In this document: positions 16,330 through 44,376 of the stretch, piece by piece | Layout of the letters: every line of letters begins with the position of its first letter | Numbering within the stretch: position 1 is the first letter of the stretch | DNA from: an uncultured Flavobacteriaceae bacterium | GTDB lineage: Bacteria; Bacteroidota; Bacteroidia; NS11-12g; UBA955 | Reading direction: 5' to 3' | Length of the DNA: 64,000 nucleotides | Assembly (NCBI GenBank): GCA_964626685.1 | Contig: CAZVJY010000001.1 | Coordinates: 7,683-71,682, forward strand | The notes under the pieces: model-generated | Seen by the model: the letters and a program-made list of their open reading frames with translations, nothing else | Databases searched by the model: none | What the model was told of the DNA's origin: nothing | Program-made: the position numbers and the translations under genes

Positions 16330-18342
16330 TTATTGCCTGCTTCGGGCATAAAAGCGGTGCATAGCCCAAACGTGTGGTAAACTCAGGCAAGCCAAGAAAA
16401 CAAAGAAAACTGAAATCCAATGATTATTTAACCATGGCAATACACCTTTATAAACAAGCAAAAACAACAACATGAGCAACAGCAACGCACCCATTGTGAA
16501 TGGAAGTGCCTTACGAAACAAGGTTATACCTGCTGCCCCCATCCCTTTTTGCAAATGCGACCAACCGTTCAGGCTGTGCTGACCTATAAAATACAGCCCA
16601 AAAGCAGAAAGCAAGGGCAACTGTATGCCTATTACGAGCATTAGCAGACTCCAAATAACATTAGGCTTTTTCTCAAACAATGCCCAAATAAGTGTTGCCA
16701 AAATCAATACATATACTAAATTCCCTACAGGAATAGTCCCAGCAATAGCCACGCCCATTCCTTCAATCACAGCCATTGCTTCCACGGGGTGCGAAAACAG
16801 GATGATGCCAAGTATACCCGTCCCCCATAAAAACGACTTCAGGTGGCGGTATTGGCTAATTTGCCACTCCTGAATATCCGACTGTCCGAAATGAAAAGCG
16901 GAATACCCTAGAAACAAAGCCATTGCAATTACAGGCTGCAGCCACCAAAGCAGGAGATACAGCAACATAATTCCCAGGTATTTTGCAATAAATACTGGTT
17001 CAGGTCTTCCCTCTACCCTCCGCGTCTCCAGTAAATAATCCAGTGCGCCATGGGGAATTCCTACAATAAACAGCCCTACCGAAAGCAAAGCCCACTGCAG
17101 TGGAACAAAAACAGCAGGAAACAAGGCATAAGCAAACCACAGCAACAGAGACAGCAACGTTAGCATGATAGGCTTTGAAATGGCTGGCGGATTGTATCTG
17201 AGATCTTGTCTAAGAGCACCTAAAAAAGGGCGAAACGGCAAGCTCAGCAGGATACCCGCATCCTGAAAAAAGGAGGTTTTCTCATCCAGAAACTGAAGGA
17301 TTCGCGGGGTGCTGTTTCTTCTGAATAATTGCTGGAATATAGGCTTACCCCTGCTTGGGCTTGTAGCGAGAATCCAAAGTAGCAGGCGATCATAGAATTT
17401 GAAGCGCACAGCATTAAAGTCAGTAGTAAAAAACTGTTTGTCCTTTAACTGTGTGGTTATTTCAACGGCCTGCCTGTGCATGTTTTTAAACGCATATCCT
17501 GTTCCGGGCTTAATCGCGCCTGCCCTGCTTCCCAGTCGGACCACCCCTTGCAATTCCTTGACTTCAAGCAGAGCAGAACACATGGGAATGCAACCGGTCT
17601 CTGTTTCCAGAATCTGTGCATTTCCAAAATGCTGCTGTATATAATTCTCCAGCACCGGCGCAGCTTCCTGTTCGGTTATCTTATTTACCCCAAAACGGGT
17701 AAGCTCCACGAGCGCTTTTCTTTCAGATAAGGGAAGCACATACATAAACTGGGTGGCACCCTGTTGTTCAACACCAAAATCCATCATATCCATGGAATCA
17801 GTATTCTCAATGGGGTGCTCAGGTTCAATCATGTATCCGATAAATGATTGAAACAGGCTGCTTTCATTGGGTTTTGGAGCCGAAAAACCGGCAGGCCTGC
17901 TATCGAATACACGGGATGCTATATAGGAGCCGATACCGGTAAACACTACCACACCCGAATCGTCCGTGGCAATGGATGTAACCGCGGCTTTGACCAGCTC
18001 TATGCCATTGCGCGCGGCCAGGGATTGCATGGCATCCTGCATTTGCATCCCTGATATGTAATGGTACTGAAGGGGTTTAAGCGGTGTTTCAGCGCCTCTG
18101 TCGATACGCAGATGATTCCATGTTTTTTGAATTAGCCCTTGACAATCCTGCACAATATCGTCTTCGGGATTTGCCCAGAAACAAAAAGTTTTGTGGCTCA
18201 ATGATTCGAAATCAGTATCCACAAGCACCACTTTCTTTCCGGCGAGTAAACCTGCCTTTTCCATCCGCATAAGCAGCAGTGTGGCAGAAGCACCGGCACC
18301 GGCGAAGAGATAATCACAGTTTATGTGGCTTTTTTTCATCAT
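16330..18342 (-). CDS. Fusion protein: lycopene beta-cyclase (CrtY family, N-terminal ~380 aa) plus a Brp/Blh-family beta-carotene 15,15'-dioxygenase membrane domain (C-terminal ~290 aa)
   Basis: The N-terminus DYLFAGAGASATLLLMRMEKAG is the FAD-binding fold of CrtY, and FMYVLPLSERKALVELTRFG resembles the CrtY FVYxLPLS region. The C-terminal half has more than 7 TM helices with conserved His/Asp (GIPHGALDYLLE, HFGQSD, HPVEA) as in Blh. It lies 65 bp downstream of the rhodopsin gene on the same strand. Confidence 0.7.
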   Translation of the reverse strand: MMKKSHINCDYLFAGAGASATLLLMRMEKAGLLAGKKVVLVDTDFESLSHKTFCFWANPEDDIVQDCQGLIQKTWNHLRIDRGAETPLKPLQYHYISGMQMQDAMQSLAARNGIELVKAAVTSIATDDSGVVVFTGIGSYIASRVFDSRPAGFSAPKPNESSLFQSFIGYMIEPEHPIENTDSMDMMDFGVEQQGATQFMYVLPLSERKALVELTRFGVNKITEQEAAPVLENYIQQHFGNAQILETETGCIPMCSALLEVKELQGVVRLGSRAGAIKPGTGYAFKNMHRQAVEITTQLKDKQFFTTDFNAVRFKFYDRLLLWILATSPSRGKPIFQQLFRRNSTPRILQFLDEKTSFFQDAGILLSLPFRPFLGALRQDLRYNPPAISKPIMLTLLSLLLWFAYALFPAVFVPLQWALLSVGLFIVGIPHGALDYLLETRRVEGRPEPVFIAKYLGIMLLYLLLWWLQPVIAMALFLGYSAFHFGQSDIQEWQISQYRHLKSFLWGTGILGIILFSHPVEAMAVIEGMGVAIAGTIPVGNLVYVLILATLIWALFEKKPNVIWSLLMLVIGIQLPLLSAFGLYFIGQHSLNGWSHLQKGMGAAGITLFRKALPFTMGALLLLMLLFLLVYKGVLPWLNNHWISVFFVFLACLSLPHVWAMHRFYARSRQ

Positions 18343-18407
18343 TTTGAGCTTAAAAAAAGGGGTTCATGATTGCATCAGAACCCCTTTTTCGTAATGAGTG
18401 TATTGAA

Positions 18408-19133
18408 TTAGTCTTCGCTTCTGCTCAGGGCATATACAACCAGACCAAATCCGATTTTGTTAACGGCATCACCAATGTTGTAGATGATGTCCATGTTCAG
18501 GTTCCAGTTCTTGCAGAACTCATACCACTGACCATCGGCAGTACCTACCAGGTAACCCAAGGGATAAATACCCCATCCGATAACAACAAATTTCAACAAA
18601 GAATCAATGGCTTTCTGCACAGCAGGGCTGCTGGCTTTGGACAGCTGGGCAACTTCGCCTTTCCATACCATCCAAACAATCCAGAAATAAGCCAGACCTG
18701 AAACCAGACCCCAGAAGGCAGCCTGATTGCGGGCAACTGCTTCACCCCAGTAGCCAGTAACCAGCATGATTACAGAGGCGAGGATGAGTTTCCACAACAG
18801 ACCTACTTTGGCACCCGCCTTTTTAGTAATGAGGTAGAATTCTACGCACATCAAAGGCACAGTCAGCAACCAGTCCACATAGCGAAAGAATACGGGAGAT
18901 TCTCCACCGGTTTCGAGGTTGTAGCCACGCATGTAGTAGTAGTGCACAGCTGCAATGAAGGTAATAATACCGGAAACAAGAACAGAAGTTCTCCAGTCTT
19001 TTGAGGTGTTACCCAATTCAAAGAAGAAGAACACAGAAGCGGCCATCATGGCCATGGTGCCGATGAAAAACGTAAATGCTACGTAGTTGTCGGCTGCGAT
19101 GACGTTAGACGTCAATAGGTTGAAATGTTCCAT
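18408..19133 (-). CDS. Proteorhodopsin-type microbial rhodopsin, predicted light-driven proton pump (DTE motif)
   Basis: Seven TM helices. Helix C RYVDWLLTVPLMCVEFYLI carries the D/T/E proton acceptor and donor positions, and helix G IIYNIGDAVNKIGFGLVVY carries the retinal Schiff-base Lys and counter-ion Asp. Met at the PR-105 tuning position suggests green absorption as in flavobacterial PRs. The start was set at MEHFNLL. Confidence 0.85.
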   Translation of the reverse strand: MEHFNLLTSNVIAADNYVAFTFFIGTMAMMAASVFFFFELGNTSKDWRTSVLVSGIITFIAAVHYYYMRGYNLETGGESPVFFRYVDWLLTVPLMCVEFYLITKKAGAKVGLLWKLILASVIMLVTGYWGEAVARNQAAFWGLVSGLAYFWIVWMVWKGEVAQLSKASSPAVQKAIDSLLKFVVIGWGIYPLGYLVGTADGQWYEFCKNWNLNMDIIYNIGDAVNKIGFGLVVYALSRSED

Positions 19134-19658
19134 ACGTGTATGTATTTTAATGATGTACACAAATGAACATAGAAAAGATAATTGTGTTTGCCTTGTGCAG
19201 ATTTTTTTTGTATATTACGAACCATCTTCCACAATTATCAACACAAAAAAGAGCACAATAAATTCAGATAATCGAATCCGATAAGAGCATTATAATTGAC
19301 TTTCAATGACTTTTACCTCGGAAATAAAACCCAAAACAGGGCGGATGATTGTTTTTCAAAATGTGGATAACTATACTTGACAAAAAGTCGAATTTATCAT
19401 GTTCATGCATCAGAAAGTAGTGATAATGATATTTTTGAATTTCAGTAAAAAACAAAGAAAATGGCGATGTAAAAACCACCATTGCAATCACACAGGCACC
19501 TATTTTACTAAAAAAATTGATATGCTTTTAACAACACACACGACATAAAGCAATGAAAAGACCCTGTGCTACACATTCTGAAACTTGGCTCCAAGACGCT
19601 ATCAGCACCGGTTAAAACTAAAAACAAGGTTACGCGGATTAAAATATAAATTCGCAGC

Positions 19659-22600
19659 ATGGGGTTTAGCTGCCAAAATCAAGAGTGCTCAATGGCCATC
19701 GCAAAGGCCGTGTTCCCTTCGGAGATAAAAAATTGTCCTGTTTGCAGTCTGCCATTGTTCGATCCTACAGCCTTGAATGATGAAGAAATTCAATTAATAC
19801 GGGAATTGCCCTATGTCATTGCCTACCCCCTGAGACAAGCCCTGCAGGAAAAGCACGCATGGACAAAAATAAACCTGCTGAAGGATACATTTCTTAATTA
19901 TCTGAAATACACTGGCCTGATCACGGCTTCTGAATTTTTTAACAGCCAGTTTAAGGACAGAAATATGGTTGCTCTTTTTCACAAAACCATTGCAGAGCCC
20001 TCCTTTGGCTCTTGGAATGAGTTTATCAGAGAAACCATCAAGTACCTAAAAGAAGAACAACACACCTTTTTCGACACAGGAATTTTCAACCACTACGAAC
20101 GGGTTGAAACCGGCAAAAGAAGAAAATTATTCAATGGAGAAATTGAATACTCTGATATCAACGGCGATATTCAATTGAAGAGACAGGAGGCCACCGGCAT
20201 TGGAATGCTCATCAACTTCCGCAACAGATACCTGGGCCATGGGCTAACACTGAATGAAATTACATCTCAAAAAATCTGGCAAGAATACTATCCAATCTTT
20301 AAATACCTGCTAACAGACTTAATCCAATCAAAACCCTTTCCAATGTTCAAACATGAGCACGGAGAAACATACCTGCTAAAGTCAGCTGAAATTCACATTG
20401 TGGAGAAAGGACAGCAACAATCCGCAAGGGTATGGATTGAAAACCAAAATAATGAACAGTTTGATATTCTGCCTTTTTATATCGTCCCAGGCGAAGTGTC
20501 TGTTTCTAAAGAAGACAAGGAACAAATATTCATTTACGAATCCCACACCGGTAAAACCATCAAATTTTTCAGCCCGGAAGGCACCGAAAAACAGACCTCA
20601 GGCAAGGTGCTGGAAAGGCTTAACCTGCTACTCAGGGAAAAACGGAATGAAACAAGCTATTCTTCCGGAGAATTTGACAGGAACACCTTTATCAATCGTA
20701 TTGCAGCCGAAAACAAGCTGGTTATTGAAACCCTCATCAATGAAAAGAAAGTACTTCCGGAGGTTTACGTAAATCGCAAAGACCTGGAGGCAAAACTCCA
20801 TGAATGGATTGGTGCCCAAGCAAGCATCTTTTTTATAGCGGCAGAGGCTGGTAGCGGAAAAACCAATCTGCTTGCTGAAATCCAACGGCAATACAACAAA
20901 CTTGACCTGCCCTGCCTGCTAATCAGGGCTGGCAGAATGGAAAAACAAACACTGACCGAGCAAATAGCCTTTGTTTTAAACATCAACCCAACGACCGGAC
21001 TGGAAGAATATCAGGCTATAGCCGGCAGCCAGGACAAACCCACTGTTGTTTTGATTGATGGACTCAATGAGGCAATTAATGCAGAAGAAGTGTGGGAGGA
21101 AATCCTTGCTATAAGCAAAATTTTTAATGGCGGGACTTTAAAATTTGTAGTCACCAGCCGGGCCAATACAGGGGCCGATATTCATCGTTTTAAATTAAAT
21201 GAAAGTGACCAGGAATTGCTGTTTGGCGATAATCCGGAAGGGGAAACCGGCCTTCATGCCTACATCAATTGGTTAACCGCCATGAACATGGTTGAATTGC
21301 AAGAAGCCTGGAATATTTACACCAAGAAAAACAAAAACAAATTCAACCCACGATTTACCTTTTCGGATATTGCAGATTTTGACCGTTCCATTTACAATCA
21401 AATCAACAACCCTCTGGTATTGAGGCTTTTCCTTGAAACCTACCATCAAAAAACGCTGCCAAAAAACAGCAACAAATACCTCAACATCTGGCGTGACTGG
21501 CTTGAATCCTTTTCTGCAAAAGAACGTGTATTCATGGAGCTGCTGGTAGAAGCTGTATGGGAAAAAGGAGAAAATGAACTGTTACTGGACGATTTGATCA
21601 ATTCGGATAGGCTGAAACCTTACTTTAACTCAGATGTTCAAAATGATCCATATCCCCGTCTAAAAAATCTGGGATGGCTGAGCCGTTACACCAAAGACTT
21701 GCACGGCTATGTTTCATTCACAGTTGAAGGTGCGTTGCTTTACATGCTGGGCGAGTTCCTTCGAAAACAGAAACCTGCCATAACTCTTAATAGTGCGCTG
21801 ACCTTACTGAGTAAAGGAACAAAACTTAAACGGTTTGCATTGGAAGCCATGCTTTGCGAACAGGCTTTGGATGACAATTTTACCCTAACAACGGAACTCA
21901 TTGATGCCGGCAACAATCATCTGGAAGTTTGCATTAAACCTTCACTGCTTTACTTAAAAACCTTCGGGGTGTCAAAAACCCTGAATAAATTACTGCAGCA
22001 AGGAACAGCAAACGACTGGAAAGTAATGCTTGAAATAGACAGCAACCTCTCAAAATTGCGGCTGCATACCTTGCGGAAAGAATTCCTCACTGAATTAATG
22101 AAGCAAAATGAATTCAGGCATATAGAATCTGTATGGCTCGGGTTAATTGCAATCATCACCTATTTTGACAAAAAACAGGCTGTTCAATACCTAGCCGAAA
22201 TTCACAAATCACAAGCCCTTATTGAAAGCGATCACAACCTGTTAAGTTTACTTGGAAAGTGTGTTGCAAAATATGGCAAATACGACCAGGCACTTGTATT
22301 TTATCACAAAAGTCTGGACATCAAAATGAAACTCCTGGGCGAAAACGACCCCTCGGTATCTGGATTGCTGAATAATATTGCCTTAGCACTTGTAAAAAAA
22401 GAAGAACTGGACAAAGCCTTGGAATTCTATCAGAAAAGCGTTGATTTAAAGTTAAAACGACTTGGAGGAATGCATCCTTCTCTGTCTGCTTCCTACAGCA
22501 ACATTGGTGCGGTGTGGCGAAAAAAAGGAGAATATGAGAAAGCCCTTTCCTATTACGAAAAGAGCATTTATATTAAGTTAAAAGTACTTGGCGAAGACAA

Positions 22601-23402: not shown

Positions 23403-24254
23403 TTGAACGTTTTTAAAATGAATACGCTTTCCAAAAATTTTTGCCATCCAATTTACTTTCGCATTTGCACGCTTGTAGCCCTCATAACAGTAAACATAAA
23501 CCTTAATGCACAAATCCTAAATATTGACAGTGAACTGCAGGATTCCCTGACCAAAACGCGCTATTTGCTCCTTTCAGGATCTTTCAGCCACGACAAGCAA
23601 AAGAGAAGTATAAATGATGCTGAATGTTACGTGGAGATGCTGCAAAAAGCCAAAAACCGCTATGCAGGTGTTTTTGTAGGGCAGCTAAATACAGTGTTAT
23701 CCGGCAGGGAGATTGTGCAGAATGAAGGCTTTTTCCAATTGCGATACCGTGATCTGGATACGCGAAAAACCAGCATGGAAGCGTATCTTCAGTATCAGTG
23801 GAATGGCTTATGGGGCATGCAGGAGCGCAAACTGGCAGGCATGAATGTGCGGCAGAAGGTGCTTGACAAAAAAAGCGGCGATTTTTACGTGGGGCTAGGC
23901 GGATTTTATGAAATGGAAACATGGAATTACAAAGGCGTTGAGGACACAAGTAAATACAAGCCGGGCACACCACCGGTTCAGCAAAACAGGCTGCGGGCGA
24001 ATAGCTATATAAAAGTTGCCAAGAAGCTATTCCGCAACTGTGATGTAATCGCAGAGTCATTCATACAGGCCAATGCGTTTTCACTGGCCAATAACCCTTC
24101 GGTGCGCTGGTTTTTACTGGGTCGAATCAATTACAACCTGACCGAAAAATTACAGCTATCAGTTAATTATGACCACATATATAACCAAAGCCCGCCGGTT
24201 CCGGTAAAAAAACTATACGCAGGATATGCGTTTAGATTCAACGTGAAACTATAA
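23403..24254 (+). CDS. Hypothetical outer-membrane beta-barrel-like protein with a signal peptide
   Basis: An N-terminal signal (LVALITVNINLNAQ), alternating amphipathic strands, and a C-terminal YAFRFNVKL ending in an aromatic-rich last strand. Confidence 0.4.
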   Translation: MNVFKMNTLSKNFCHPIYFRICTLVALITVNINLNAQILNIDSELQDSLTKTRYLLLSGSFSHDKQKRSINDAECYVEMLQKAKNRYAGVFVGQLNTVLSGREIVQNEGFFQLRYRDLDTRKTSMEAYLQYQWNGLWGMQERKLAGMNVRQKVLDKKSGDFYVGLGGFYEMETWNYKGVEDTSKYKPGTPPVQQNRLRANSYIKVAKKLFRNCDVIAESFIQANAFSLANNPSVRWFLLGRINYNLTEKLQLSVNYDHIYNQSPPVPVKKLYAGYAFRFNVKL

Positions 24255-24258
24255 CTTT

Positions 24259-24555
24259 ATGAAGCAATTACTTACGCTGACCATTCTGTTTTACCGGTGG
24301 GCCATTAAACCATTTTACAAACGCACTTGCCTTTTTTGTGTCAGTTGTTCACAGGAAGTCCTCAACGAAGCCAGACAGAATGGCTTCCGAGCAGGAATTA
24401 ACACGCTGAATACAAGGTTGAAGTACTGCAGGCCGGGTTTTCTTTGGGGTAAAAATCCAGTAACAGGCAAACAAAGACTTATCTTCCCGGATGGAAAATA
24501 CCTGGAAGAGAAAGAAATATCATTTGAAATCCTCAACCTCATACAAAACCCATAA
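24259..24555 (+). CDS. yidD: YidD-like membrane protein insertion efficiency factor (haemolytic domain, PF01809-like) with a ~25-aa C-terminal extension
   Basis: ILFYRWAIKPFYKRTCLFCVSCSQEVLNEARQNGFRAGINTLNTRLKYC matches the YidD pattern Y-x3-I-x-P-x5-C-x-F-x2-[ST]-C-S...G...KC. Confidence 0.6.
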   Translation: MKQLLTLTILFYRWAIKPFYKRTCLFCVSCSQEVLNEARQNGFRAGINTLNTRLKYCRPGFLWGKNPVTGKQRLIFPDGKYLEEKEISFEILNLIQNP

Positions 24556-24585: not shown

Positions 24586-27500
24586 ATGAAAATTCCTTTT
24601 TCATTACCCGGAAGTTTTGAGAAAACCATACATGAGCTGGCCAGAACCAGAGAAAAAGCAGCCAAACAAAAATACCTGCTGGATCTGGGCGAAAGCCTGG
24701 TAATGCACCTATGTTCCTTTATACTTGGAGAATACAAGGAAAGCAAGCTTGTATCTATAGAACTGGAAAAATCGTTTTTAAAGAATAATAAAAATATTAG
24801 CTTCGGCATTTATCTTGGATGGCTGAGGGAATCCTCAAAATTTTTATACAAATCCAATACCCCATCCCGCATCCACAGTCTCATTCATGGAAGTAACGAA
24901 TGGAGCGAAGTATGGAAATTCATCAAAGGTTTTGAAGCGCTAAAATCGCAGATTGACAAAGGTGCTTCTGAAGGATTTGAAACCATGGTTCAGGACGCTC
25001 TTCGCAACAACCCATCCAAGGTGAACATTATTCAGTTTTTTGACACTTTTATACAATTGCGGAACCGGGTTGCCCATCCCCATAAAGAAGTGAACGGAAT
25101 CAACATTAGCTGGCCATTTTCCGAAGATTATTTCGACACACTGAACCCCCTGCTTGAAGGGGCACTGCAAAGAACCATGCAGGAACTTAATCAGATTTGG
25201 GAATACAGAAAATACACCATTGAAAGCAATGAGGATGGCATTCTCCTGCTGTTGAACGAAGACTCCGGAGAATTTGAAGAATTTGCGGTAAAAACAGACA
25301 TCACCGATGGCATAAAAGTATTTGCCAATGCCGAAAACAATATTCTTATCTCTGACTGGAAAGTTTTACTGAAAGCCGGAGACAAGGCATTGGAAGAAAT
25401 ACGAAAAGAGGAAGAAACACTTCGAAACAAAGCCAGCATTGAAGAACTGAAAGAATCTATCAAAGCTGCATTGGATGACGGCCAAATCAGCCTGGAAGAA
25501 TTTAACTTTTTTGAATCGCTGGGTAAAACCAAACTGGGGCTGAACAGGCAAGACCTCAAAAATCTCATTATGGAGGTTGCTTCGTCCATGCAGATTGAAG
25601 ATCCATTTCCTGAAGTAGACAAGCGATTTGTTGCCGCAATTGATGAAGCCATCCGAAACAAAACCTACAACGACTTTATTCTAAAACTTACAGGACAACA
25701 GTATGGGGTGGATGCCGAACAGTTCGAAAAGGTTTTTGCGGAGAGAGCAGCTGCGCTGGGTGCAGATCCGGAAGACGTGAAAAAAAACAGAATCCTTCAG
25801 TTCAGCCATGATGAACTTAAAACCTTTCAGGGCCTGCTCATGGCATGGCAGTGGCTGGGGAATATTTATTTGTTCAACAAAAACAACACTGAGAGCCAGT
25901 ATAAAATTACCGGCGACTCTCATGAATATGGCACAAAAGAATACTGGCACAGGAATGCGTTTCAGGCAGTAGATCAATTTGTGCAATCAAGGCTTGCAAA
26001 AATCGCATTAACAGATGACACCATATGGGACACAAAGCAAAACAACTGGCAAATAGGGGTAATGACAAGTTATGCATGGTGCTCTGCCTTTCCCAAGGAT
26101 GCAGTTTCCCTGAGAATTCTGTCATTGCACTTCAGTCTGTATGCAGACAGATGCGCCGCAATTGGTTTTCTGCCTGACTGGAAAGATTACAAACTGCTGG
26201 AAAAGTATGGATTAATGCTGGATGTGTTTTGCAGACACCTAAAAGATTTTACAGTTGAGTATGAAAATGAGCTAAGGAAATACAACAACCTTTTTCTATG
26301 GGATGGCGTGAACAACAAGCCCCTACATTCCTTTAGTGAGATGATGCGGTCTAATGAATGGTATTTTCAGCATATGTATAACTTTGACCAGATTCAGTTC
26401 TATTATTCAGGAAAAGAAATAGAATCCAATCCGGCAATACTGCTGGAAGGATTTGACATTGTTTTCAACCTGTTTGGCGGATTGTTTGAAAGAGTAAATC
26501 GGGATTATTTAAACCTGTTAAATGACACAACCGAAATAGAAACCAAAAAAGAAACAGTAGTTAAAAAACTGCAAGGACTTATCGCCACCCTCGCTAATTT
26601 TGGATTAACAACAACGGAGGGAGCTATTGCTACCAGCAACCCCGATGAAGTCATCATTCCGGAGGACAATTCCGAGCACGGCACCCATGGCCTAAAAGGC
26701 AACAGCCAACTGGGTTATTACGCTATTGAATTTAAAGAAAAAATCAAAGGATATCCGGTCTTGCTTGTCTTCCAGTTCAGGCAAAATTATATATCAGGGA
26801 AACTAAACTTCAACACCATTATTTCGGTTGCCGGCGATTCGGAAAACACCATTCATGTGCCGGCTGCACATGTATTGGAGAAATTAACAGAACATGCTTT
26901 TACAGGTTGTAAAGCGCACCAATACAAAGGCAAATTTGTTTTAAACTGCGAAGTAGAGGATATCATTGATTTTGATCCAAACCCCATTGTATTGGTTTTT
27001 ATGGAAAAATTCACAGCATTGCTTGCGGAATATAAACTCGATGTTCTGGGTATCAGCATTCACGACCCTCTTTTTGAGAAAGAAAAAGAGCAAATCAATG
27101 AAAAGCTGAATGCACTGCAAGTAAATATAGCTCCTCATTTTTCAAACCAGATATATCAGGAAAGAAACATCATGAAGGGTAAACGTTACATTGATTACGT
27201 TTACTCAAATAAAAAAGTAACACATTACCTGGGATGGGGCAATGAGCTTACACAAAATGGCCTTAAGGACATATTGATTTTCCACGTAAAAGACACCATT
27301 AAGGGAGCTCATTTGGTGCAGCTGATGCAGGATTTTGCAAAAGACCGACCGGAATGGGAATATCGTGAAACCGATAGCGCAGAAAGAGAAGAGGCAATAT
27401 GGCTGGGTGAATGTATGCGTGAACAGGAATTGACGGCATCCTCGGAATACAATCGCAATTATGCTGCCAGGCATGCCGTTATTGATAACCCTAAAAACTA

Positions 27501-27933
27501 CTGGTGTGCCAAAGTGAAAGACAACAAACAGTGGTTTCAGGTAAAACTGCGTGAAATTGCTGAAATAACTGCCATCAAGCTGCAGGGATCTCCAAATCAA
27601 AACGCATTCATTCAGCAATTTGACCTGATGCATTCCATCAATGGAAAAGAATGGAAAACCCTCCACGCCATAAGTGGATTAGACCCCTCAAATACCGAAA
27701 AGGAAATTGTTCTTGAAAAGCCGGTTAAAGCCGTTTTCATAAGAATTATACCGACAGTGTTCAGTGGCTATCCAGCCTTAAGAATAGATGTAAAAAAGCG
27801 TAACCTCACAGCTGGAGCTGCCGAATTGTGCTATCGATGCCAGAGGAACGCAGTCGAAGACAATTCTATGCCCAACATTGAAAAGCAAATTGAGGTGTTT
27901 TTGCCATTGTTCAGAAACCATATTGGCTTTTAA
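24586..27933 (+). CDS. Large multidomain protein: N-terminal HEPN-like region (Rx4H motif), central coiled-coil, and a C-terminal F5/8 type C (discoidin) domain
   Basis: FIQLRNRVAHPHKEV carries the R-N-x3-H motif of HEPN and Abi_2-type domains. The C-terminus WFQVKLREIAEITAIKLQGSPNQNAFIQQFDLMHSINGKEWKTL...VFIRIIP is typical of discoidin domains. No signal peptide. Confidence 0.55.
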   Translation: MKIPFSLPGSFEKTIHELARTREKAAKQKYLLDLGESLVMHLCSFILGEYKESKLVSIELEKSFLKNNKNISFGIYLGWLRESSKFLYKSNTPSRIHSLIHGSNEWSEVWKFIKGFEALKSQIDKGASEGFETMVQDALRNNPSKVNIIQFFDTFIQLRNRVAHPHKEVNGINISWPFSEDYFDTLNPLLEGALQRTMQELNQIWEYRKYTIESNEDGILLLLNEDSGEFEEFAVKTDITDGIKVFANAENNILISDWKVLLKAGDKALEEIRKEEETLRNKASIEELKESIKAALDDGQISLEEFNFFESLGKTKLGLNRQDLKNLIMEVASSMQIEDPFPEVDKRFVAAIDEAIRNKTYNDFILKLTGQQYGVDAEQFEKVFAERAAALGADPEDVKKNRILQFSHDELKTFQGLLMAWQWLGNIYLFNKNNTESQYKITGDSHEYGTKEYWHRNAFQAVDQFVQSRLAKIALTDDTIWDTKQNNWQIGVMTSYAWCSAFPKDAVSLRILSLHFSLYADRCAAIGFLPDWKDYKLLEKYGLMLDVFCRHLKDFTVEYENELRKYNNLFLWDGVNNKPLHSFSEMMRSNEWYFQHMYNFDQIQFYYSGKEIESNPAILLEGFDIVFNLFGGLFERVNRDYLNLLNDTTEIETKKETVVKKLQGLIATLANFGLTTTEGAIATSNPDEVIIPEDNSEHGTHGLKGNSQLGYYAIEFKEKIKGYPVLLVFQFRQNYISGKLNFNTIISVAGDSENTIHVPAAHVLEKLTEHAFTGCKAHQYKGKFVLNCEVEDIIDFDPNPIVLVFMEKFTALLAEYKLDVLGISIHDPLFEKEKEQINEKLNALQVNIAPHFSNQIYQERNIMKGKRYIDYVYSNKKVTHYLGWGNELTQNGLKDILIFHVKDTIKGAHLVQLMQDFAKDRPEWEYRETDSAEREEAIWLGECMREQELTASSEYNRNYAARHAVIDNPKNYWCAKVKDNKQWFQVKLREIAEITAIKLQGSPNQNAFIQQFDLMHSINGKEWKTLHAISGLDPSNTEKEIVLEKPVKAVFIRIIPTVFSGYPALRIDVKKRNLTAGAAELCYRCQRNAVEDNSMPNIEKQIEVFLPLFRNHIGF

Positions 27934-27970
27934 TCCCACTTAAGGATTCCATAAAGGGCTGAACAACCCT

Positions 27971-28456
27971 TTATCTTTTTTTCAATAGAATATATTGATC
28001 CCAGAAAGCCACTGCCCTGCTTAACTCTTCCGGCTCCATACCATTGTGGGGAAAGGCAGGTGCATAACCACCGGGAAACACCGTTATTAAAGTGCAAACA
28101 TCGTTATCTCTGCTACAAATGACGGTAACCAGTGATGTGGAAGGAAGTTCTTCCGCTTCTGCGTACTCCACAAAAAGTCCGTTTCGGTTCTCCTTAACTA
28201 TTTTTTGGTCAGCATATTCAGCTTTAAAACCCAAACCTAGACTACCACATGCCCCAATATCTGACAAATTATAGGTATGTGCCTCCCTTCCGGCAGCCTG
28301 CAGAATAATATCATGCGGATTCCTTTTCTCAAGGGTAAAGAGCAAATCATCTACCGCAGGAAAAACCTCCGGATAAAAACAACTTCCTGCTTTTTCCTGT
28401 TTTCCGAAATGGATGGCGATGTGCTGCCTGGTTTCAGAGCTCAGCAAATACTTCAT
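27971..28456 (-). CDS. Hypothetical protein, 161 aa
   Basis: Complete ORF. Its start overlaps the stop of the upstream 465-aa ORF by 4 bp (translational coupling). No motif recognised. Confidence 0.4.
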   Translation of the reverse strand: MKYLLSSETRQHIAIHFGKQEKAGSCFYPEVFPAVDDLLFTLEKRNPHDIILQAAGREAHTYNLSDIGACGSLGLGFKAEYADQKIVKENRNGLFVEYAEAEELPSTSLVTVICSRDNDVCTLITVFPGGYAPAFPHNGMEPEELSRAVAFWDQYILLKKR

Positions 28457-37574: not shown

Positions 37575-38957
37575 TCACTTTCCGATACAGAATTTACCAA
37601 AGATGCTTCCCAGCAGATCCTCGGTTGTGATCTCACCGGTAATCTCACCCAGCGCAGCCAGGGCTTCTCGCAAATCAAAAGCAAGCATTTCTTTGGATAT
37701 GCCAGCTTCAATCGCTCCTAAAACGCGCAATAGGGCTTCCTCGGCCTTCATAAACGCGTGAAGGTGCCGATGGTTGGTTATCAGTGTTTGATCGCTTAAA
37801 ACAGCTTTATATGCCGTATTCTCATGCAAATAATCACGCAGTCTCTGCCTGTCATTTCGGTTTTTACCGGAGACGCCAATTATCCCTGACGCACCGCCGG
37901 CCATTGCCGCCGCTTGCCATTCACTGTAATCCCAATCCTGAATCAAATCGGTTTTATTACCAACTACCCACACATGCTGCACCTTGCCGGTAAGTTTCCT
38001 AAGATCTTCGGTAAGTTCAATGTGAGTAGTAACAGAAACATCTGCCACATAAAGTACCATGGCACTCCCCTGCATGTACTGCCAGGTTCGTTCTATACCC
38101 ATACGCTCTATCGTGTCTGCAGCCTCGCGTATGCCGGCCGTATCAATTAGCCTGTAACGCATTCCTTCCACCATCAACACATCCTCCAGCGCATCGCGGG
38201 TAGTGCCGGCTATATCTGAAACGATAGCCCTTTCCTCCTGCAGCAACAAGTTAAACAAGGTACTTTTGCCTGCATTGGGTCTGCCAGCAAACACCACCTG
38301 CACGCCTTCCTTCACGGCATTGCCTAACGCAAAGGTTTCCAGCAACGCCCTAATTTTCTCCAGTGCTTCATTTACCTGAGCAATCAGCTCATCCCTGCGG
38401 GCAAATTCCACATCTTCCTCGCTGAAATCCAGCTCAAGTTCTATCAGTGCAGCAAAATCTATCAGCCGTGTACGCATGAGGGATATTTCTTCTGAAATAC
38501 CTCCCCTCAACTGCCCCAATGCAGCCTTGTGCGAAGCTGCAGATTCTGAAGAAATCAAATCTGCAACTGCCTCTGCCTGTGCCAAATCCAGTTTTCCATT
38601 GAGAAAAGCCCTCAAAGTAAATTCACCCGGTTCAGCAGGCCTGGCACCCTGCCTGCATAGAGACTGAATCAGCCTGTCTACTATATAGGGCGAGCCATGC
38701 GTACTGATTTCCACGGTATCGTCGCCGGTATAACCATGCGGAGCCCTGAAAACCGTAAGCAAAGCCTCATCCAATAATCCTTCCTCATCCCACAATGCCC
38801 TGAAATGAGCAGTGTGGCTGTTTACTGAAGAAACAGGTTTTTTCAGCAACCGGTCAACCAGAGATAACACGCCCGGCCCGCTCACACGCACCACGGCCAC
38901 TGCTCCTACACCGGCAGGTGTTGCCCGCGCTACGATAATATCCTGTCTGTTTTTCAA
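37575..38957 (-). CDS. mnmE: tRNA modification GTPase MnmE (TrmE)
   Basis: N-terminus IIVARATPAGVGAVAVVRVSG, G-domain GRPNAGKSTLFNLL and DTAGIRE, and the hallmark C-terminus FCIGK. Confidence 0.9.
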   Translation of the reverse strand: MKNRQDIIVARATPAGVGAVAVVRVSGPGVLSLVDRLLKKPVSSVNSHTAHFRALWDEEGLLDEALLTVFRAPHGYTGDDTVEISTHGSPYIVDRLIQSLCRQGARPAEPGEFTLRAFLNGKLDLAQAEAVADLISSESAASHKAALGQLRGGISEEISLMRTRLIDFAALIELELDFSEEDVEFARRDELIAQVNEALEKIRALLETFALGNAVKEGVQVVFAGRPNAGKSTLFNLLLQEERAIVSDIAGTTRDALEDVLMVEGMRYRLIDTAGIREAADTIERMGIERTWQYMQGSAMVLYVADVSVTTHIELTEDLRKLTGKVQHVWVVGNKTDLIQDWDYSEWQAAAMAGGASGIIGVSGKNRNDRQRLRDYLHENTAYKAVLSDQTLITNHRHLHAFMKAEEALLRVLGAIEAGISKEMLAFDLREALAALGEITGEITTEDLLGSIFGKFCIGK

Positions 38958-39024
38958 CGATACAAAGGTACAAACAAAAAACCCCGGCGGGTGGCCGGGG
39001 CTCTTTGTTTAATGACTATTTTAA

Positions 39025-42000
39025 TTAGTTGGCACGTATCAGGTTCACTGATCCGGATACATACTTCTGTTCTTTGCCCTTGAAACGATAGGTCAATTGA
39101 TAGAAGTAAGTGCCTTCAGGAACCTCAGGGCCATCGTTATTCACTTGACCATTCCAGCCAATCTTGGGATTTTCGGTGCGGAACACACGCTCACCCCAGC
39201 GGTTGAAGATTTTAAGTTCGAAGAGATCCTGGCCCTGGATTGGCACTCGGTAGGTATCATTTTTACCGTCGGCTTTTCCGGGAGTAAATACGTTAGCCAG
39301 ATAGATGAACAAATCAACTACAACCGGCTTACAAATTGTATCTACACATCCTGAGGCATTTTTCGCAATCAGACACACCCAGTATTTACCGCTGCTGTCA
39401 TAAGAGTAGCAAACCTTCTTGTCGTTGCTGTTATTTTGCTCGAAGAAGTCTTTAGGCAGGGTGTTCTTGATATCGTTTGCGTGAGAGAAGCCCCAGCGCC
39501 ACTGCGTGCCATTTACATCCGTGCGGGTAAAGCAGAAGTCAGGCTTACCACTCGAATCTATATCAAAGTCCGCTTTTACGCTGTCAACCAGGAAGGTATC
39601 AATCACAGCTGGCGTGGGACAGTAAGGTTGAGGATGGGTAATTCCGTAATCTGCCAAATGTGTAACCCGATATTGGCCTGGCACAGTAAACTGGCGTTTG
39701 TAATTTTTCGTAGTCACCGTTACAGTATCAACCTTACCTGTGCTCAGGTTTTCAAACCGCCATTTGTAGGACTTAAAGATGGTATCCGAATTGTCAACAA
39801 ATTCGTTTGAATCATTAGGACAAATAGCAGGCTTAACAATAAATCCTCTAACCGTGTCGCGCTTAATTACATTCACGATAAAAGCCTTTTGACCACCGGC
39901 GGTATCAGGGAAAGTAGCGGGGCAGAAACGTTTCAGGTTTGGCGGAATGAACAAGGTATCATACTGCTCAAGGAATACGAAGTATTTACCAGGCTTATTG
40001 TAAACATGGGTAATAAATGTATCCTTTTTGTTGGCAACAGCACCATCACCAAACAACCAGTTCCAGTCAGCACCATTGGTAGCCGAATCGGTCATATTTT
40101 TGAATCTAACAGGGTTTCCTACGCAGATGGTGATCTCATTTCCTGCAAAATCTGCATATTCAAATCTGGGACGGGGACCTGGAATTTTAATCCAGCGCTT
40201 GATGGTATCTGCGCAACCCTGGTCAGTTGTGGCAAACAGGGTTATCTGGAACCAGCCATTTCTTGTGTACTTGTGCGCAAGACTTGGTGGCAACAGCTCG
40301 TCAGAAGATTTTGAACGGGAGAAATAGTTTGTTTTTCCATCACCCCAGTCAATAAAATACTCACGAATAAAATCACACTCAATCGGAGCCGGACCGTTAC
40401 AGTTCTTGATAGCCCAGTTACATGGATCAAAAAGTTTAGTACTGTCAAACAATTCTATAATTGAGTTACAGGATGGAACTGCAAGATTCAAGGCAAAGTT
40501 TACATCCAGACGGCTTATGAATAGGCGACGAGTCAATGTATCACGACAACCAGTTGAGTCACCCACAGCCACACGGAATGTATAAACACCGGAGTCATTC
40601 TTGTAGTAAATGGTCTTGGGATCAGTAGGACCGCCACCGAGCTGGAACCAAGGAGAAGTCAAAGTACCTACCCCTACTGCGCCGTAAGGAGCGCCACCGA
40701 AACGGGTAGCTGCATTATTGGGATCATCATCCTTTTTGCTCCAATCCCAGCGAGTAAATGACTCACGGTTAGGCACACCGGCAAAGATATCTGCCTGACG
40801 CTTTGCATCACGCCAGTAATCAAATGGATCCCAGGTTCCTACTTGCGGATCGGGGTGGAAATAACGAAGGTCCAGCCTTGCACTCAGGTTGGTTGCCTGA
40901 TCCTGACATATAGTTGAGTCAGGTAATTCAATAAAGGCGGCAAAACCTACTATCACAGGAAGCGCGAGGAATTCATCACACTTACCGTTTGCAGATGTCA
41001 TACTCAATTCAACAGTATGGAATCCAGCCCAGGGTGAGCGGAAAGTGTATGCCTTCAGTTTATTACCGCCAACAACAGCAGAATCCAAAGGACGGATATT
41101 GGTGTCTCTGGGGTGAATAATTTTCTTAAAGTTGGTATCAGGTCTAAGGTAGAAGCGAATGAAACGACCGAAACCATTGGTATCGATACAACCTTCAGCG
41201 CCGGTGGCAGGCTGACCGATGATCCCTTTGTTGTTCCAAATCATGCGGGTAATCTGGGCTGCATCGAGAGCAAATGGATCAAAGCCACGTGATTCAACAC
41301 GTTCCTTAATTCTATCCCAGACAGCAGAAACATCGGCTGCGGTGTCCCATTTGCCAATAATGGCTGTAACAATGGTATCAGGGGTTTTATCCAATTTCCC
41401 GCCATGTTTTCCGTCATCCCACGCAACTGCACGGTCATTTCTGGAGTCATCCTGCCATTCCATTGAACAAGGAACGGGCTCAGGTCGGGTTTCGAAACGG
41501 CTCTGAATAAGTATGTTGTAAATCTTATTACTGCTTGAATCTTTAAGACGAATACCTCTTTGATAATCTTCAACAATCTGGTAATTCCACTGCTTGCTGT
41601 ATGAAGGACTAGCATTGCCGGTACCAAACTGCCAGCGCAGGCTCTTCAAATCATCGGTCTTGGTCTTATTATTGGCTACTGGTCTAACCACCACGCGATC
41701 GTTCTTACAAATCTTGCGAACGCCGGCAGAATTAGGAGTAGGAGTAACAATCTCAAATGAAGGATCAATTACGGGGAAGCAGGCAAACTTATCGTAGTAC
41801 TGGGTATCAGCACACAAGGGAGGATCACCAACGGTTCCACCTTTGGCCACACCATTACCTACGATAATTCCTACCGTAATACAGCCATTGGGGTTACATA
41901 CCTCAGCTGCTGTATATTGCTTGGAGAACCTTGAAGGCGGGTTTGATGCTATCTGATAACCCATGTAAGGCATACCGGGAGGCCTGTTACCTGGTGTCAA

Positions 42001-44376
42001 ACCGGATGTCAGGGTAGTCCAGGTGGTGGGCTTGCAGAAAGTATCATAGTTGATGCCTACATAAGAGAAAGTACAACCCGGTTTTAGGTCACTCAAAATA
42101 AACGTGATACCGTACTGCTGGTTTTTACTGCCAAGACACTCGATCGCATCTTTCACCAGACCGGATCCTACCCCGCCGGCATTGGCATGAAGCATAGACA
42201 ACTGTTTGGTGGCTTCAGAAGTACACTTAAGCGGGTGGCAGGTATCGTAGTGCGTCAGTCTTACGTTGTTACACTGGGGAATTCTTGCATAGTAAAGCTC
42301 TCTCCAGCGCTTGTAATCCACTTTGTAATCCAGTCCTGCTGTTCCGGGGAAGGTACGTTTGATAAATCCAACGATTCTGGGATTTTCACCTTTCTTGGTG
42401 CGTATGCGCAGCAAGGGTGCCGGCAGGGTATCCTTTTTCAGGAAAACGGTAAACAGGAACCGGAATGAATCAGTTTTGCTTGTCAGTTTTATCACCTGTC
42501 TTGGTGCTAGACTTAAAGTTTTGGGACCTATGTGACGTGTAAACGGACCATTTTGGGGACCTACAAAAGCGGTATCACCAGCCTTTAGCTCCACATCTAC
42601 ATTGTTCGTAATAAAGCGTTCTGCCGGACCTTTAATCCCTTTTTCCCAGAGGAAGGTTTTTGTCTTGTTGGCAGCATATTTGGGCTGGTTCGCCAGAATA
42701 CTGTCAGCCATACTCTTGGGAACCACCAGCAAAGTATCTTCTATGATAAAGTTGGTGTCAGAAGGCCAAATATTGATACGCTTACAAAGCTTGCTGCTCT
42801 CGATAAAAATAGCATCCTCCATAGGCGCATTTTTAAAGTCGGATAGCATTACCAGATCCCAGCTCTTGTAGTAATGTGAGGGGAGCGAATCATGACTGTA
42901 TTGACAGTTAACATTTACGTTTTTGTTATTCAAACGGTCAGTGGTACATCTCGGAGCATAGTTGTCTCCAAAATTCCAAATTCTCACAGCGCATACTCGC
43001 TGACGGAACAAGGGATCAACAAAACCACGGGGCCTAACCCAAGTTTGGCTGTTGTCAAATACATGTCCGGGGTGATTGTTTCCTGGCCACTTTTTGAATG
43101 TACTGTCATCATTCCACATGTTTTTATCGTTGTGATAGAACTTGGAAAAGTTCTTAAAGTGAACCGTATCCTGTACATCTTTGGGACACTGGAAAACCTC
43201 AAACTCAGCAATGCGGTTAAACGGAATTTCAATAGTCGATTGAGGACCAATAATCATTATTGTATCGAATGCCCTTTTGGTTCTGGTTCTTCCACCACAT
43301 ACAATATCATAGGTAAATGATATTTGAAAAGGACCGAGCCCGCTGAAGGCATGCTCAGCAGAATAGGTTCGGTTGTTAAAGTTTAACGGACCTGTGGGGG
43401 GATCTCCGAAATTCCAGAGGAAACTGGATATACCTACCACAGGCTGAGGTACCAGGCTGAATTTAATATTGGGATCGGAAATACAGGTAGAATCTCTGTC
43501 AGCCACAATCTGATACTCCCCTTTAAGCACCTGCGCAGCCGCCTTCATCTCGAATGAATCAATACAACCATCGGTGGTTTCAATAATCATTTTGATATTG
43601 TAAACACCGGGAGACGTATACTTCTTCTGAATATTGGGGCCCCATTGGTTACTGGTTGTACCATCACCCCAAAACCAGGTGATTGTCTTTACCTTACTTT
43701 GGGCAATCCTAGAAATATTTCTGATTAGCGCTGTTACTGAGTCGCAGTCTACAGGCTTATTACTGGTAAACGCCGGACCGATTGCTTCACGCACTTTGGC
43801 TGCACAGCTGATGGTATCACTTGCCGCGCAACCATTGGCATCTGTATATTCCACATAGAGATCAAAACAACCTCCGCGTACATCCTTGATCGAGTAACAG
43901 AAAGGATTAATAGCACTGCTGTTCTGGAAAAACTGACCGTCACCCACAACATACTTGGCAGAACGAATGGGAGATCCATTGGGGTTCTTGGTTGAATCAC
44001 TGAAACAGAAAAGGTTGCCCCGGAAACACTGTTCGGGCTGGCTTATCAATTTTAAATTGGGCACAGGGCTTGTCTTGATGGTAAGCTGAATAATCGAAGT
44101 ACATCTTGAACCGTTGATGGTAGTAATGTACCGGATATTCTTAAGTCCTGGAGTTTTAAAGGCATAATTCAGGTTTCTGAGGCCTGAAGATGTATTTTCA
44201 CCATTAAAATCCCAGTCATGGGTTGTGCCTGTACTTGCTCCTGTAAAAGCGATAGGCGAACCAACGCATAATGCCCCACTGTACTGAATGGTGCACTGTG
44301 CCGTGGCATAGCTGCCTGCAAACAGCAGGGCAATAACCGGCACAATTTTTTTGAAGATGGCTGTATAACCTTTCAT
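39025..44376 (-). CDS. Very large secreted adhesin-like protein with PKD-like repeats and a T9SS type-B C-terminal domain (gliding-motility-associated CTD)
   Basis: The start was set at MKGYTAIFKKIVPVIALLFAGSYATAQ (signal peptide). The C-terminus ANVFTPGKADGKNDTYRVPIQG...YFYQLTY matches the type-B CTD consensus (FTPNGDGxND). It is about 1783 aa and Gly/Thr/Asp-rich. Confidence 0.7.
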   Translation of the reverse strand: MKGYTAIFKKIVPVIALLFAGSYATAQCTIQYSGALCVGSPIAFTGASTGTTHDWDFNGENTSSGLRNLNYAFKTPGLKNIRYITTINGSRCTSIIQLTIKTSPVPNLKLISQPEQCFRGNLFCFSDSTKNPNGSPIRSAKYVVGDGQFFQNSSAINPFCYSIKDVRGGCFDLYVEYTDANGCAASDTISCAAKVREAIGPAFTSNKPVDCDSVTALIRNISRIAQSKVKTITWFWGDGTTSNQWGPNIQKKYTSPGVYNIKMIIETTDGCIDSFEMKAAAQVLKGEYQIVADRDSTCISDPNIKFSLVPQPVVGISSFLWNFGDPPTGPLNFNNRTYSAEHAFSGLGPFQISFTYDIVCGGRTRTKRAFDTIMIIGPQSTIEIPFNRIAEFEVFQCPKDVQDTVHFKNFSKFYHNDKNMWNDDSTFKKWPGNNHPGHVFDNSQTWVRPRGFVDPLFRQRVCAVRIWNFGDNYAPRCTTDRLNNKNVNVNCQYSHDSLPSHYYKSWDLVMLSDFKNAPMEDAIFIESSKLCKRINIWPSDTNFIIEDTLLVVPKSMADSILANQPKYAANKTKTFLWEKGIKGPAERFITNNVDVELKAGDTAFVGPQNGPFTRHIGPKTLSLAPRQVIKLTSKTDSFRFLFTVFLKKDTLPAPLLRIRTKKGENPRIVGFIKRTFPGTAGLDYKVDYKRWRELYYARIPQCNNVRLTHYDTCHPLKCTSEATKQLSMLHANAGGVGSGLVKDAIECLGSKNQQYGITFILSDLKPGCTFSYVGINYDTFCKPTTWTTLTSGLTPGNRPPGMPYMGYQIASNPPSRFSKQYTAAEVCNPNGCITVGIIVGNGVAKGGTVGDPPLCADTQYYDKFACFPVIDPSFEIVTPTPNSAGVRKICKNDRVVVRPVANNKTKTDDLKSLRWQFGTGNASPSYSKQWNYQIVEDYQRGIRLKDSSSNKIYNILIQSRFETRPEPVPCSMEWQDDSRNDRAVAWDDGKHGGKLDKTPDTIVTAIIGKWDTAADVSAVWDRIKERVESRGFDPFALDAAQITRMIWNNKGIIGQPATGAEGCIDTNGFGRFIRFYLRPDTNFKKIIHPRDTNIRPLDSAVVGGNKLKAYTFRSPWAGFHTVELSMTSANGKCDEFLALPVIVGFAAFIELPDSTICQDQATNLSARLDLRYFHPDPQVGTWDPFDYWRDAKRQADIFAGVPNRESFTRWDWSKKDDDPNNAATRFGGAPYGAVGVGTLTSPWFQLGGGPTDPKTIYYKNDSGVYTFRVAVGDSTGCRDTLTRRLFISRLDVNFALNLAVPSCNSIIELFDSTKLFDPCNWAIKNCNGPAPIECDFIREYFIDWGDGKTNYFSRSKSSDELLPPSLAHKYTRNGWFQITLFATTDQGCADTIKRWIKIPGPRPRFEYADFAGNEITICVGNPVRFKNMTDSATNGADWNWLFGDGAVANKKDTFITHVYNKPGKYFVFLEQYDTLFIPPNLKRFCPATFPDTAGGQKAFIVNVIKRDTVRGFIVKPAICPNDSNEFVDNSDTIFKSYKWRFENLSTGKVDTVTVTTKNYKRQFTVPGQYRVTHLADYGITHPQPYCPTPAVIDTFLVDSVKADFDIDSSGKPDFCFTRTDVNGTQWRWGFSHANDIKNTLPKDFFEQNNSNDKKVCYSYDSSGKYWVCLIAKNASGCVDTICKPVVVDLFIYLANVFTPGKADGKNDTYRVPIQGQDLFELKIFNRWGERVFRTENPKIGWNGQVNNDGPEVPEGTYFYQLTYRFKGKEQKYVSGSVNLIRAN

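Follow-up and report, generated by a model that had tools for sequence, protein, structure and literature searches.

A discoidin protein with a HEPN-like N-terminal domain as a candidate component of an undescribed conflict system in freshwater Bacteroidota

We analyzed a stretch of 64,000 nucleotides from contig CAZVJY010000001.1 of an uncultured Flavobacteriaceae bacterium (the window; coordinates count from its first letter) and focused on one protein of 1115 amino acids (aa), hereafter T. Its open reading frame (ORF) was found on the plus strand with an ATG start, exactly where the initial annotation of the window had placed it. T belongs to an undescribed protein family of freshwater Bacteroidota. 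We consider T to be a cytoplasmic component of an undescribed conflict system of these bacteria, probably anti-phage, with a probability of roughly 45%. This reading is the most likely one because nearly every T gene adjoins a gene for one of two kinds of membrane partner, which are either c2, usually with the soluble protein c3, or the larger protein c4.

The neighbor clustering covered 35 T loci. Among the 26 loci with usable flanks, 22 contain c2(/c3) or c4 and none contains both, and this linkage extends over T proteins of 29-99% identity. In 14 loci c2 is encoded no more than 10 kb from T, usually with c3 after it, and c3 was found in 10 of the 30 genome loci. The two C-terminal transmembrane (TM) segments of c2 span residues 383-401 and 420-438, and its CorA match covers profile positions 324-433 only, that is, the C-terminal part. 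The c2 and c3 profiles gave no meaningful match to the PDB in hmmsearch, and c3 matched nothing in Pfam, the PDB, or PADLOC. In eight informative T loci the partner is c4, a protein of 1340-1420 aa that has about seven TM helices in its C-terminal part and an N-terminal domain in which DHH motif I is weakly matched (Pfam, 2.4e-4; NrnA-like entry in the PDB, E 0.7). The most distant T (29% identity, locus L031) is found in the order T-c4-DUF481. We also scanned metagenomes starting from c4. Of the 14 informative loci with a full-length c4, 13 had T or a discoidin-less relative of T (group A, described below) adjoining, and five of those c4 loci had DUF481 directly 3' of c4. We inspected whether c4 is a fusion of c2 and c3 and rejected this, since hhalign found no homology of c2 or c3 to c4; c3 is absent from every c4-type locus.

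A third recurrent neighbor is c1, a DUF481-type outer-membrane β-barrel protein, which was found in 14 genome loci and in L031-L033 and L041 and accompanies both partner types. The window copy of c1 matches DUF481 weakly (0.017), and the L020 copy does so at 1e-7. In the window, c1, a YidD-like gene, and T are separated by gaps of only 4 and 30 bp, so that the layout is operon-like. In some loci another gene (c6) lies between T and DUF481; we considered it as a YidD gene and rejected this, as c6 encodes a secreted protein. Four loci (L020, L021, L032, and L033) contain an operon SIR2-c2-c3-T. The SIR2 gene heading the operon matches ThsA at 2.9e-33, and its product has 275 aa in L032 and L033. 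An Endonuclease_NS gene lies 3' of T in three loci, and L031 and L034 encode homologous Ion_trans channels, close to T in the former and to a group-A gene in the latter. The initial annotation had taken a STAND gene as the relevant neighbor; the conserved partners, c2/c3 or c4 together with the DUF481 barrel, were missed there. It had also named carbohydrate utilization as a context that would speak against defense, and none of the 35 T loci shows such a context.

The N-terminal domain of c4 (about 380 aa) occurs in other settings as well. It is fused elsewhere to TIR_2 or protein kinase domains (P0340-P0353), and in L112 (3132..8851) a Pkinase+TPR gene is followed by a gene in which this domain is joined to TIR, which points to a second uncharacterized conflict-system module. 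In L062 (7966..11020) and L063 (1313..4391) a c2-like ORF stands directly upstream of a standalone gene for a c4N-like protein, a pairing that ties both alternative T partner families together in an unrelated context. The distant c4N-like loci L061-L111 have an unrelated conserved neighborhood with no gene for the N-terminal domain of T. In about ten of these (L068-L094), a c4N-like protein of about 345 aa ends a conserved array of seven genes, k3-k2-k8-k4-k5-k9-k0.

In searches of T against Pfam, NCBIfam, and PADLOC, the C-terminal discoidin domain was the sole recognized part. The F5_F8_type_C profile scores 81 bits (cut-off 28.2), the F5_F8_type_C_2 profile matches at 2.5e-9, and a discoidin domain is annotated in about 90 of 95 T homologue clusters. 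The discoidin domain proposed in the initial annotation is thus correct, the strings quoted there (WFQVKL, IKLQGSPNQN, and FDLMHSINGKEWKTL) are all present in the translation, and its view of the architecture as undescribed agrees with our library searches. A Kyte-Doolittle scan shows no hydrophobic segment anywhere in T, so the protein has neither a signal peptide nor a TM helix and looks cytoplasmic, as had been suggested.

AlphaFold models were obtained for residues 1-272 (27 sequences, pLDDT 92.6) and 266-948 (pLDDT 83.6). In the models, an all-helical N-terminal domain (N-domain) is followed by a five-stranded small β barrel, a helical region, and two α/β domains ahead of the discoidin domain. 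For the barrel, Foldseek returned local matches of short length (prob 0.9-1.0, E>0.1) to eIF5A, to CSD and S1-type domains, and to the OB domain of the proteasome ATPase. The helical region contains a TerB-like pattern, DDGQISxEE...LGL, within residues 283-402. TerB (PF05099) matches 4 of 14 members below the cut-off (best E 0.019), EF-hand_5 is matched by 4 of 14 as well, and the profile of this region has no match in the PDB. The α/β domain 1 is Trp-rich, with invariant W423, W481, W488, and W498, and a disordered linker (residues 677-700) precedes α/β domain 2. The model of residues 266-948 has no fold match in the PDB by Foldseek. The middle part of T, about 650 residues, accordingly matches nothing known in profile and PDB fold searches.

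The N-domain carries the motif on which the initial annotation had built its prediction of a HEPN RNase. The segment FIQLRNRVAHPHKEV corresponds to T residues 155-169 and includes the Rx4H motif, R159 to H164. In an alignment of 40 full-length homologues (28-84% identity), R159, N160, H164, and P165 are invariant; W176, P177, and many more distal Trp and Gly residues are invariant as well. Conservation peaks in the N-domain around the motif and at residues 280-400 and is lowest at residues 660-940. In the predicted structure, helices 24-53, 58-66, and 73-89 are followed by a helical insert (97-138) and by helix 148-163. RNRVAH stands precisely at the end of this helix, and a β hairpin (166-175) and helix 180-200 come after it. 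In HEPN domains, the motif lies at the C-terminal end of a helix ahead of the next loop, the residue after the Arg is usually N, D, or H, and inserts occur between helices 2 and 3 (Anantharaman et al., 2013; PMC3710099). The model of the T N-domain fits all three points, and the Rx4-6H pattern with a polar residue after the Arg is seen in R159, N160, and H164. The HEPN region had been placed at residues 130-260, which we correct to a helical domain of residues 1-205.

The N-domain is not limited to T. A hidden Markov model (HMM) of T residues 1-272 found 116 proteins among 1.84 billion representative proteins, and these fall into two groups. Group A proteins (600-960 aa) contain the N-domain, the barrel, the TerB-like region, and α/β domain 1, and have no discoidin domain. 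Group B proteins have only the helical domain of about 200 aa in common with T. In group B the N-domain comes first and is fused to STAND proteins with NB-ARC or AAA_16 plus TPR, to GHMP kinases, a protein kinase, an FGE-sulfatase, and HSDR_N. In one protein (P0123), the whole N-module of about 340 residues stands ahead of a type IIG restriction-methylase (PADLOC, 3.4e-154). Across 19 superfamily members (about 16-39% identity), H164 occurs without exception, whereas R159 and N160 are kept in at least 90%, and the same conservation was found in 55 distant relatives. No PADLOC model covers the N-domain. Two loci show more than one gene with the N-domain: L036 (239..5324) encodes two tandem group-A paralogues of 840 and 843 aa that are 63% identical, and L046 has a second N-domain gene adjoining T.

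The T family itself is narrow. A search of 5.8 billion proteins yielded 95 homologue clusters (identity 29-99%), nearly all full-length at about 1100 aa, all unnamed or annotated as hypothetical, and derived from metagenome-assembled genomes (MAGs) of Flavobacteriia or Bacteroidota. Among 185,579 species genomes (one genome per species), T is present at 30 loci, which are confined to freshwater Flavobacteriales, Crocinitomicaceae, and bins related to them. The presence and position of T differ between relatives (L016, L040, and L041). For example, T stands alone between prfB and prfC in L016, and the locus of the next-closest relative of the window (L041) is rearranged and has no STAND gene. 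Since presence and placement vary among relatives, T fits an accessory-type gene.

We hypothesize that T would work as a sensor-effector protein. The variable C-terminal half, α/β domain 2 and the discoidin domain, may bind a ligand derived from an invader or from damage, possibly a glycan or a glycosylated macromolecule. Binding would release the N-terminal module, in which the HEPN-like domain with its R-N-x3-H motif is joined to the OB/SH3-like barrel, and the freed module may cleave RNA. T would act with, and perhaps signal through, its inner-membrane partner, c2 with c3 or the multi-TM c4; a DUF481 outer-membrane barrel is usually encoded nearby, and a ThsA-like SIR2 in some lineages. An anti-phage or abortive-infection role, as the initial annotation had proposed, is plausible from these associations and from the reuse of the N-domain in STAND proteins, a restriction-methylase, and kinases. 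The adjacent STAND gene itself is not conserved with T.

Several observations weigh against a conflict system with a HEPN-type effector. The N-domain of T has no match in Pfam (E≤0.1) or NCBIfam and thus no similarity to HEPN profiles, its profiles match nothing in the PDB by hmmsearch, and Foldseek of the N-terminal model against the PDB and BFVD gave nothing at E<0.05. The sole Pfam HEPN family among the matches listed is HEPN_RiboL-PSP, which was hit by 2 of 55 relatives at a best E of 0.079. No relative of T was found in plasmids and phages by tblastn or in a scan of IMG/VR, and the length and architecture of T are unusually stable for a defense gene. PADLOC has no match for T, c1, c3, c4, or the DUF4407 gene cluster that lies further downstream in the window, and an outer-membrane barrel is not a usual defense component. 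The c2 family is larger than the T family (at least 160 clusters) and occurs without T; one locus (L040) has c1-c2-c3 and lacks T, and c2 is found near the seven-gene DUF4407/DUF350-type cluster, which is of an envelope type, in the window, L038, L039, and L041. Furthermore, all T loci come from MAGs or metagenomes, and the locus counts overstate the number of independent observations because some loci are close relatives.

The identity of the N-domain should therefore be worded with care. The motif is strongly constrained and its placement is HEPN-like, but no HEPN entry is among the listed Foldseek matches of the N-terminal model, the comparison that the initial annotation had suggested for this fold. 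Because neither profile nor Foldseek searches link the domain to HEPN families, we regard HEPN-like as a plausible, unproven description of the modeled domain. T may thus resemble a lectin sensor to which a HEPN effector is joined, as no more than a putative HEPN member. Membership in Abi_2/AbiD-AbiF (PF07751), the proteins with which the initial annotation had compared the motif, was rejected as T has no match to this profile at E≤0.1 in Pfam, and Abi_2 is not among the 25 families listed of the 126 that the relatives match at E≤5. The opposite view, in which Rx4H is a chance motif in an ordinary discoidin protein, could appeal to the shortness of RNxxxH and the lack of any HEPN profile match, yet it is rejected as next to impossible, because R159, N160, and H164 are kept in the T family and across the superfamily at about 20% identity.

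A more elaborate version of the conflict reading can be drawn from the partner genes, and we offer it tentatively, as a proposal that is rather doubtful in its full extent. In this version, T, its partner c4 (or c2-c3), and the DUF481 barrel would together make up an undescribed envelope-spanning immune system. Its cytoplasmic lectin-domain sensor, with a new and highly divergent HEPN-type RNase module, would be linked to an effector in the inner membrane and to a further component in the outer membrane. The N-module of about 340 residues, which comprises the HEPN-like domain, the barrel, and the TerB-like region, would serve as a new portable effector cassette that also recurs in a type IIG restriction enzyme and in STAND NTPases.

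The membrane partners also allow an explanation outside of conflict. T may be part of a module for envelope or membrane homeostasis, working with the DUF481 barrel, the YidD-like factor, and c2 or c4 at the inner membrane. The discoidin domain would then bind an endogenous glycan or lipid, e.g. an envelope precursor, and the RNxxxH domain would be a regulatory or binding domain rather than a nuclease. Because c2 occurs without T and near the DUF4407 cluster, this explanation keeps some weight, and it would account for the linkage of c1 to both partner types, the loci with c1-c2-c3 and no T, the position of c2 beside the DUF4407/OmpA/DUF350-type cluster in four genomes, the TerB-like helical region, and the stable architecture without mobile-element copies. 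On the other hand, it does not explain why the N-domain recurs on STAND NTPases, a restriction-modification (RM) enzyme, and kinases, why a ThsA-like SIR2 heads the L032 operon, or why the c4 N-domain is fused to TIR elsewhere. The sparse distribution of T (30 of 185,579 species genomes) and its loss or rearrangement among relatives also speak against it. We consider this alternative unlikely. If it is correct, the T family would still define about 650 residues without a known fold match, tightly tied to uncharacterized membrane proteins.

Discoidin domains are usually extracellular, and T might thus be an exported bacteriocin-like toxin whose discoidin domain binds a receptor on the target cell and whose HEPN-like domain is the toxic RNase. 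The consistent linkage of T to one protein of the inner membrane and a barrel of the outer membrane would then reflect a dedicated export route made of c2 or c4 and DUF481, and the small soluble c3 adjoining T would be the immunity protein. However, T lacks both a signal peptide and TM segments, no type IX secretion system (T9SS)-type C-terminal domain was noticed in it, c3 is missing in all c4-type loci, and the N-domain is found elsewhere on cytoplasmic proteins (STAND, RM, and kinases). The toxic part would also be N-terminal in T, which is the reverse of polymorphic toxins. Such an exported toxin is improbable.

The gene adjacent to c1 in the window raises another alternative. The initial annotation had called it a NACHT-TPR STAND NTPase. 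Our searches support a P-loop NTPase with strong TPR repeats, that is, a STAND protein by its NTPase and repeat sensor, but the NACHT clade is weakly supported; the scores are 6.8e-5 for NPHP3_N, 0.002 for AAA_22, 0.054 for NACHT, and 2.3e-11 for PADLOC Avs2. This protein shares the N-domain with T (its residues 50-230, 19806..20348), and the motif there reads FRNRYLGH (Rx5H). BLASTP of the two N-termini was not significant and the homology is seen with a broadened N-domain HMM only, which matches STAND residues 50-136 with 27-29 bits and aligns RNRYLGH. Ahead of the N-domain, residues 5-30 of the STAND protein form a zinc-ribbon-like CxxC...CPxC segment. The shared domain may be an adaptor like an effector-associated domain, whose homotypic contact would pair T as the effector arm with the STAND-TPR sensor; this pairing concept has been published (PMC8195603). 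A related arrangement is found in L024, where an N-domain-NACHT-TPR gene lies 5.5 kb from T, and group-A genes adjoin AAA_16/TPR STAND genes in L034 and L035. However, the window and L024 are the only cases among the 35 T loci (2/35), so the co-localization search suggested by the initial annotation does not support the STAND protein as a conserved partner. The STANDs of L034 and L035 have no N-domain, and the invariant R-N-x3-H-P points more to catalysis than to an interface. We therefore give the adaptor explanation very little credence.

The coordinates of T, its parts, and the neighboring genes are collected in Table 1. The number of terminator-like hairpins in the region is not above chance, and the one 3' of T is suggestive by its position alone. 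The AT-rich island described in the initial annotation is modestly real, with a GC content of 0.395-0.42 over 18-32 kb against 0.44-0.53 across most of the remaining window. Among the other features of the window, a 670-aa ORF at 16330..19160 (-) encodes a Lycopene_cycl and BCD (Blh, β-carotene dioxygenase) fusion and adjoins a rhodopsin gene, and L041 has the same fusion and arrangement. L038 (Arcticibacter) shows rhodopsin-Blh-c2 without T, and L039 has c2-c3 beside AAA_16/TPR genes, also without T. The seven-gene cluster is at 30567..36884 (+), with DUF4407 at 32364..33539 and a DUF350-like gene last; its homologues adjoin c2 in L038, L039, and L041, and OmpA is annotated in L038 and L039. 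Literature searches gave nothing relevant on DUF4407, nor on discoidin domains with an anti-phage role. Directly past this cluster is a tRNA-Phe (37046..37121, -) which could mark the boundary of a 19.6-37 kb island, and an ORF of about 1822 aa (~37575..43000, -) lies on its far side.

Table 1. Coordinates of T, its predicted parts, and neighboring genes in the window
Feature	Position	Strand	Basis or remark
STAND-type P-loop NTPase with TPR, 1172 aa	19659..23177	+	TPR_12 7.8e-52; Walker A GSGKT
c1, DUF481-type outer-membrane β-barrel with signal peptide	23403..24254	+	Pfam DUF481
YidD-like, 98 aa, between c1 and T	24259..24555	+	Pfam YidD 4.7e-9; TIGR00278 2.6e-11
T (protein under study)	24586..27933	+	ORF, ATG start, 1115 aa
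N-domain, aa 1-205, all-helical, HEPN-like	24586..25200	+	AlphaFold model, superfamily profile, alignment
Rx4H motif R159-N-R-V-A-H164, then invariant P165	25060..25077	+	Invariant columns; end of helix 148-163
Five-stranded small β barrel, OB/SH3/cold-shock-like, aa 206-262	25201..25371	+	AlphaFold model, strands within 208-255
Helical region, aa 266-402, with TerB-like repeat	25381..25791	+	AlphaFold model
α/β domain 1, aa 408-680	25807..26625	+	AlphaFold model; also in discoidin-less relatives
α/β domain 2, aa 700-925, least conserved	26683..27360	+	AlphaFold model
Discoidin/F5_F8_type_C domain, aa 949-1058	27430..27759	+	Pfam E=1e-22
Terminator-like hairpin	27951..27974	+	Directly 3' of the T stop codon
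c3, 161-aa soluble protein	27971..28456	-	3' of c2 wherever present
c2, ~445-455 aa, CorA-like, two C-terminal TM helices	28453..29820	-	PADLOC CorA 3.2e-6, partial

If T is part of a conflict system as we propose, it would represent a new multi-gene defense or conflict system from poorly studied freshwater Bacteroidota, with a new, very divergent branch or an analogue of HEPN RNases that current profile libraries miss. It would also offer a specific bacterial example of an immune sensor built on an intracellular lectin domain, an idea that is so far a comparative-genomics proposal. The mutually exclusive c2+c3 and c4 and the recurrent outer-membrane barrel would raise the question of how a cytoplasmic sensor communicates with the envelope. 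In the libraries searched and the searchable literature, the architecture of T, the N-module of about 340 aa, the two middle domains, c2, c3, and c4 are all undescribed.

Among known systems, T can be compared with the HEPN Abi and toxin RNases (Abi_2/AbiD-AbiF, AbiV, RnlA/LsoA, and HepT; Anantharaman et al., 2013). T likewise has Rx4-6H with N after R, the motif at a helix end before the last core helix, a helical insert ahead of that helix, and an N-domain that acts as a fusable module in conflict proteins. In contrast, the N-domain is larger (about 205 aa), has no detectable profile or Foldseek similarity, and shows its own signature (YP..., SxG, WP, and NPxL). It is also joined, within T, to the barrel, the TerB-like region, two α/β domains of no known match, and the discoidin domain. 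Compared with Avs and NLR-like STANDs, the N-domain occupies the N-terminal effector slot of NACHT, NB-ARC, and AAA_16 proteins with TPR, including the window neighbor, whereas T has no NTPase and the STAND neighbor is not conserved with it. The partners recall the CorA and NrN (DHH) proteins of type III-B CRISPR systems, as c2 has the partial CorA match with two C-terminal TM helices and c4 the DHH motif-I-like N-terminus, and the SIR2 heading the L032 operon is similar to ThsA of Thoeris. However, T loci contain no CRISPR or Thoeris genes, the CorA and DHH matches are weak, and a nucleotide signal is without support there.

The closest published concept to T is the proposal that, in STAND/TPR conflict systems, lectin domains (discoidin-fold NPCBM and FGS) sense invaders inside the cell (Kaur et al., 2021; PMC8195603). 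Like these systems, T combines an intracellular discoidin-fold lectin with a predicted effector near STAND-TPR genes, and one relative of its N-domain is fused to an FGE-sulfatase (FGS). The differences are that the lectin of T is F5_F8_type_C instead of NPCBM and its effector would be the HEPN-like N-domain. The hosts of T are unicellular freshwater Bacteroidota rather than actinobacteria or cyanobacteria, and its conserved partners are membrane proteins.

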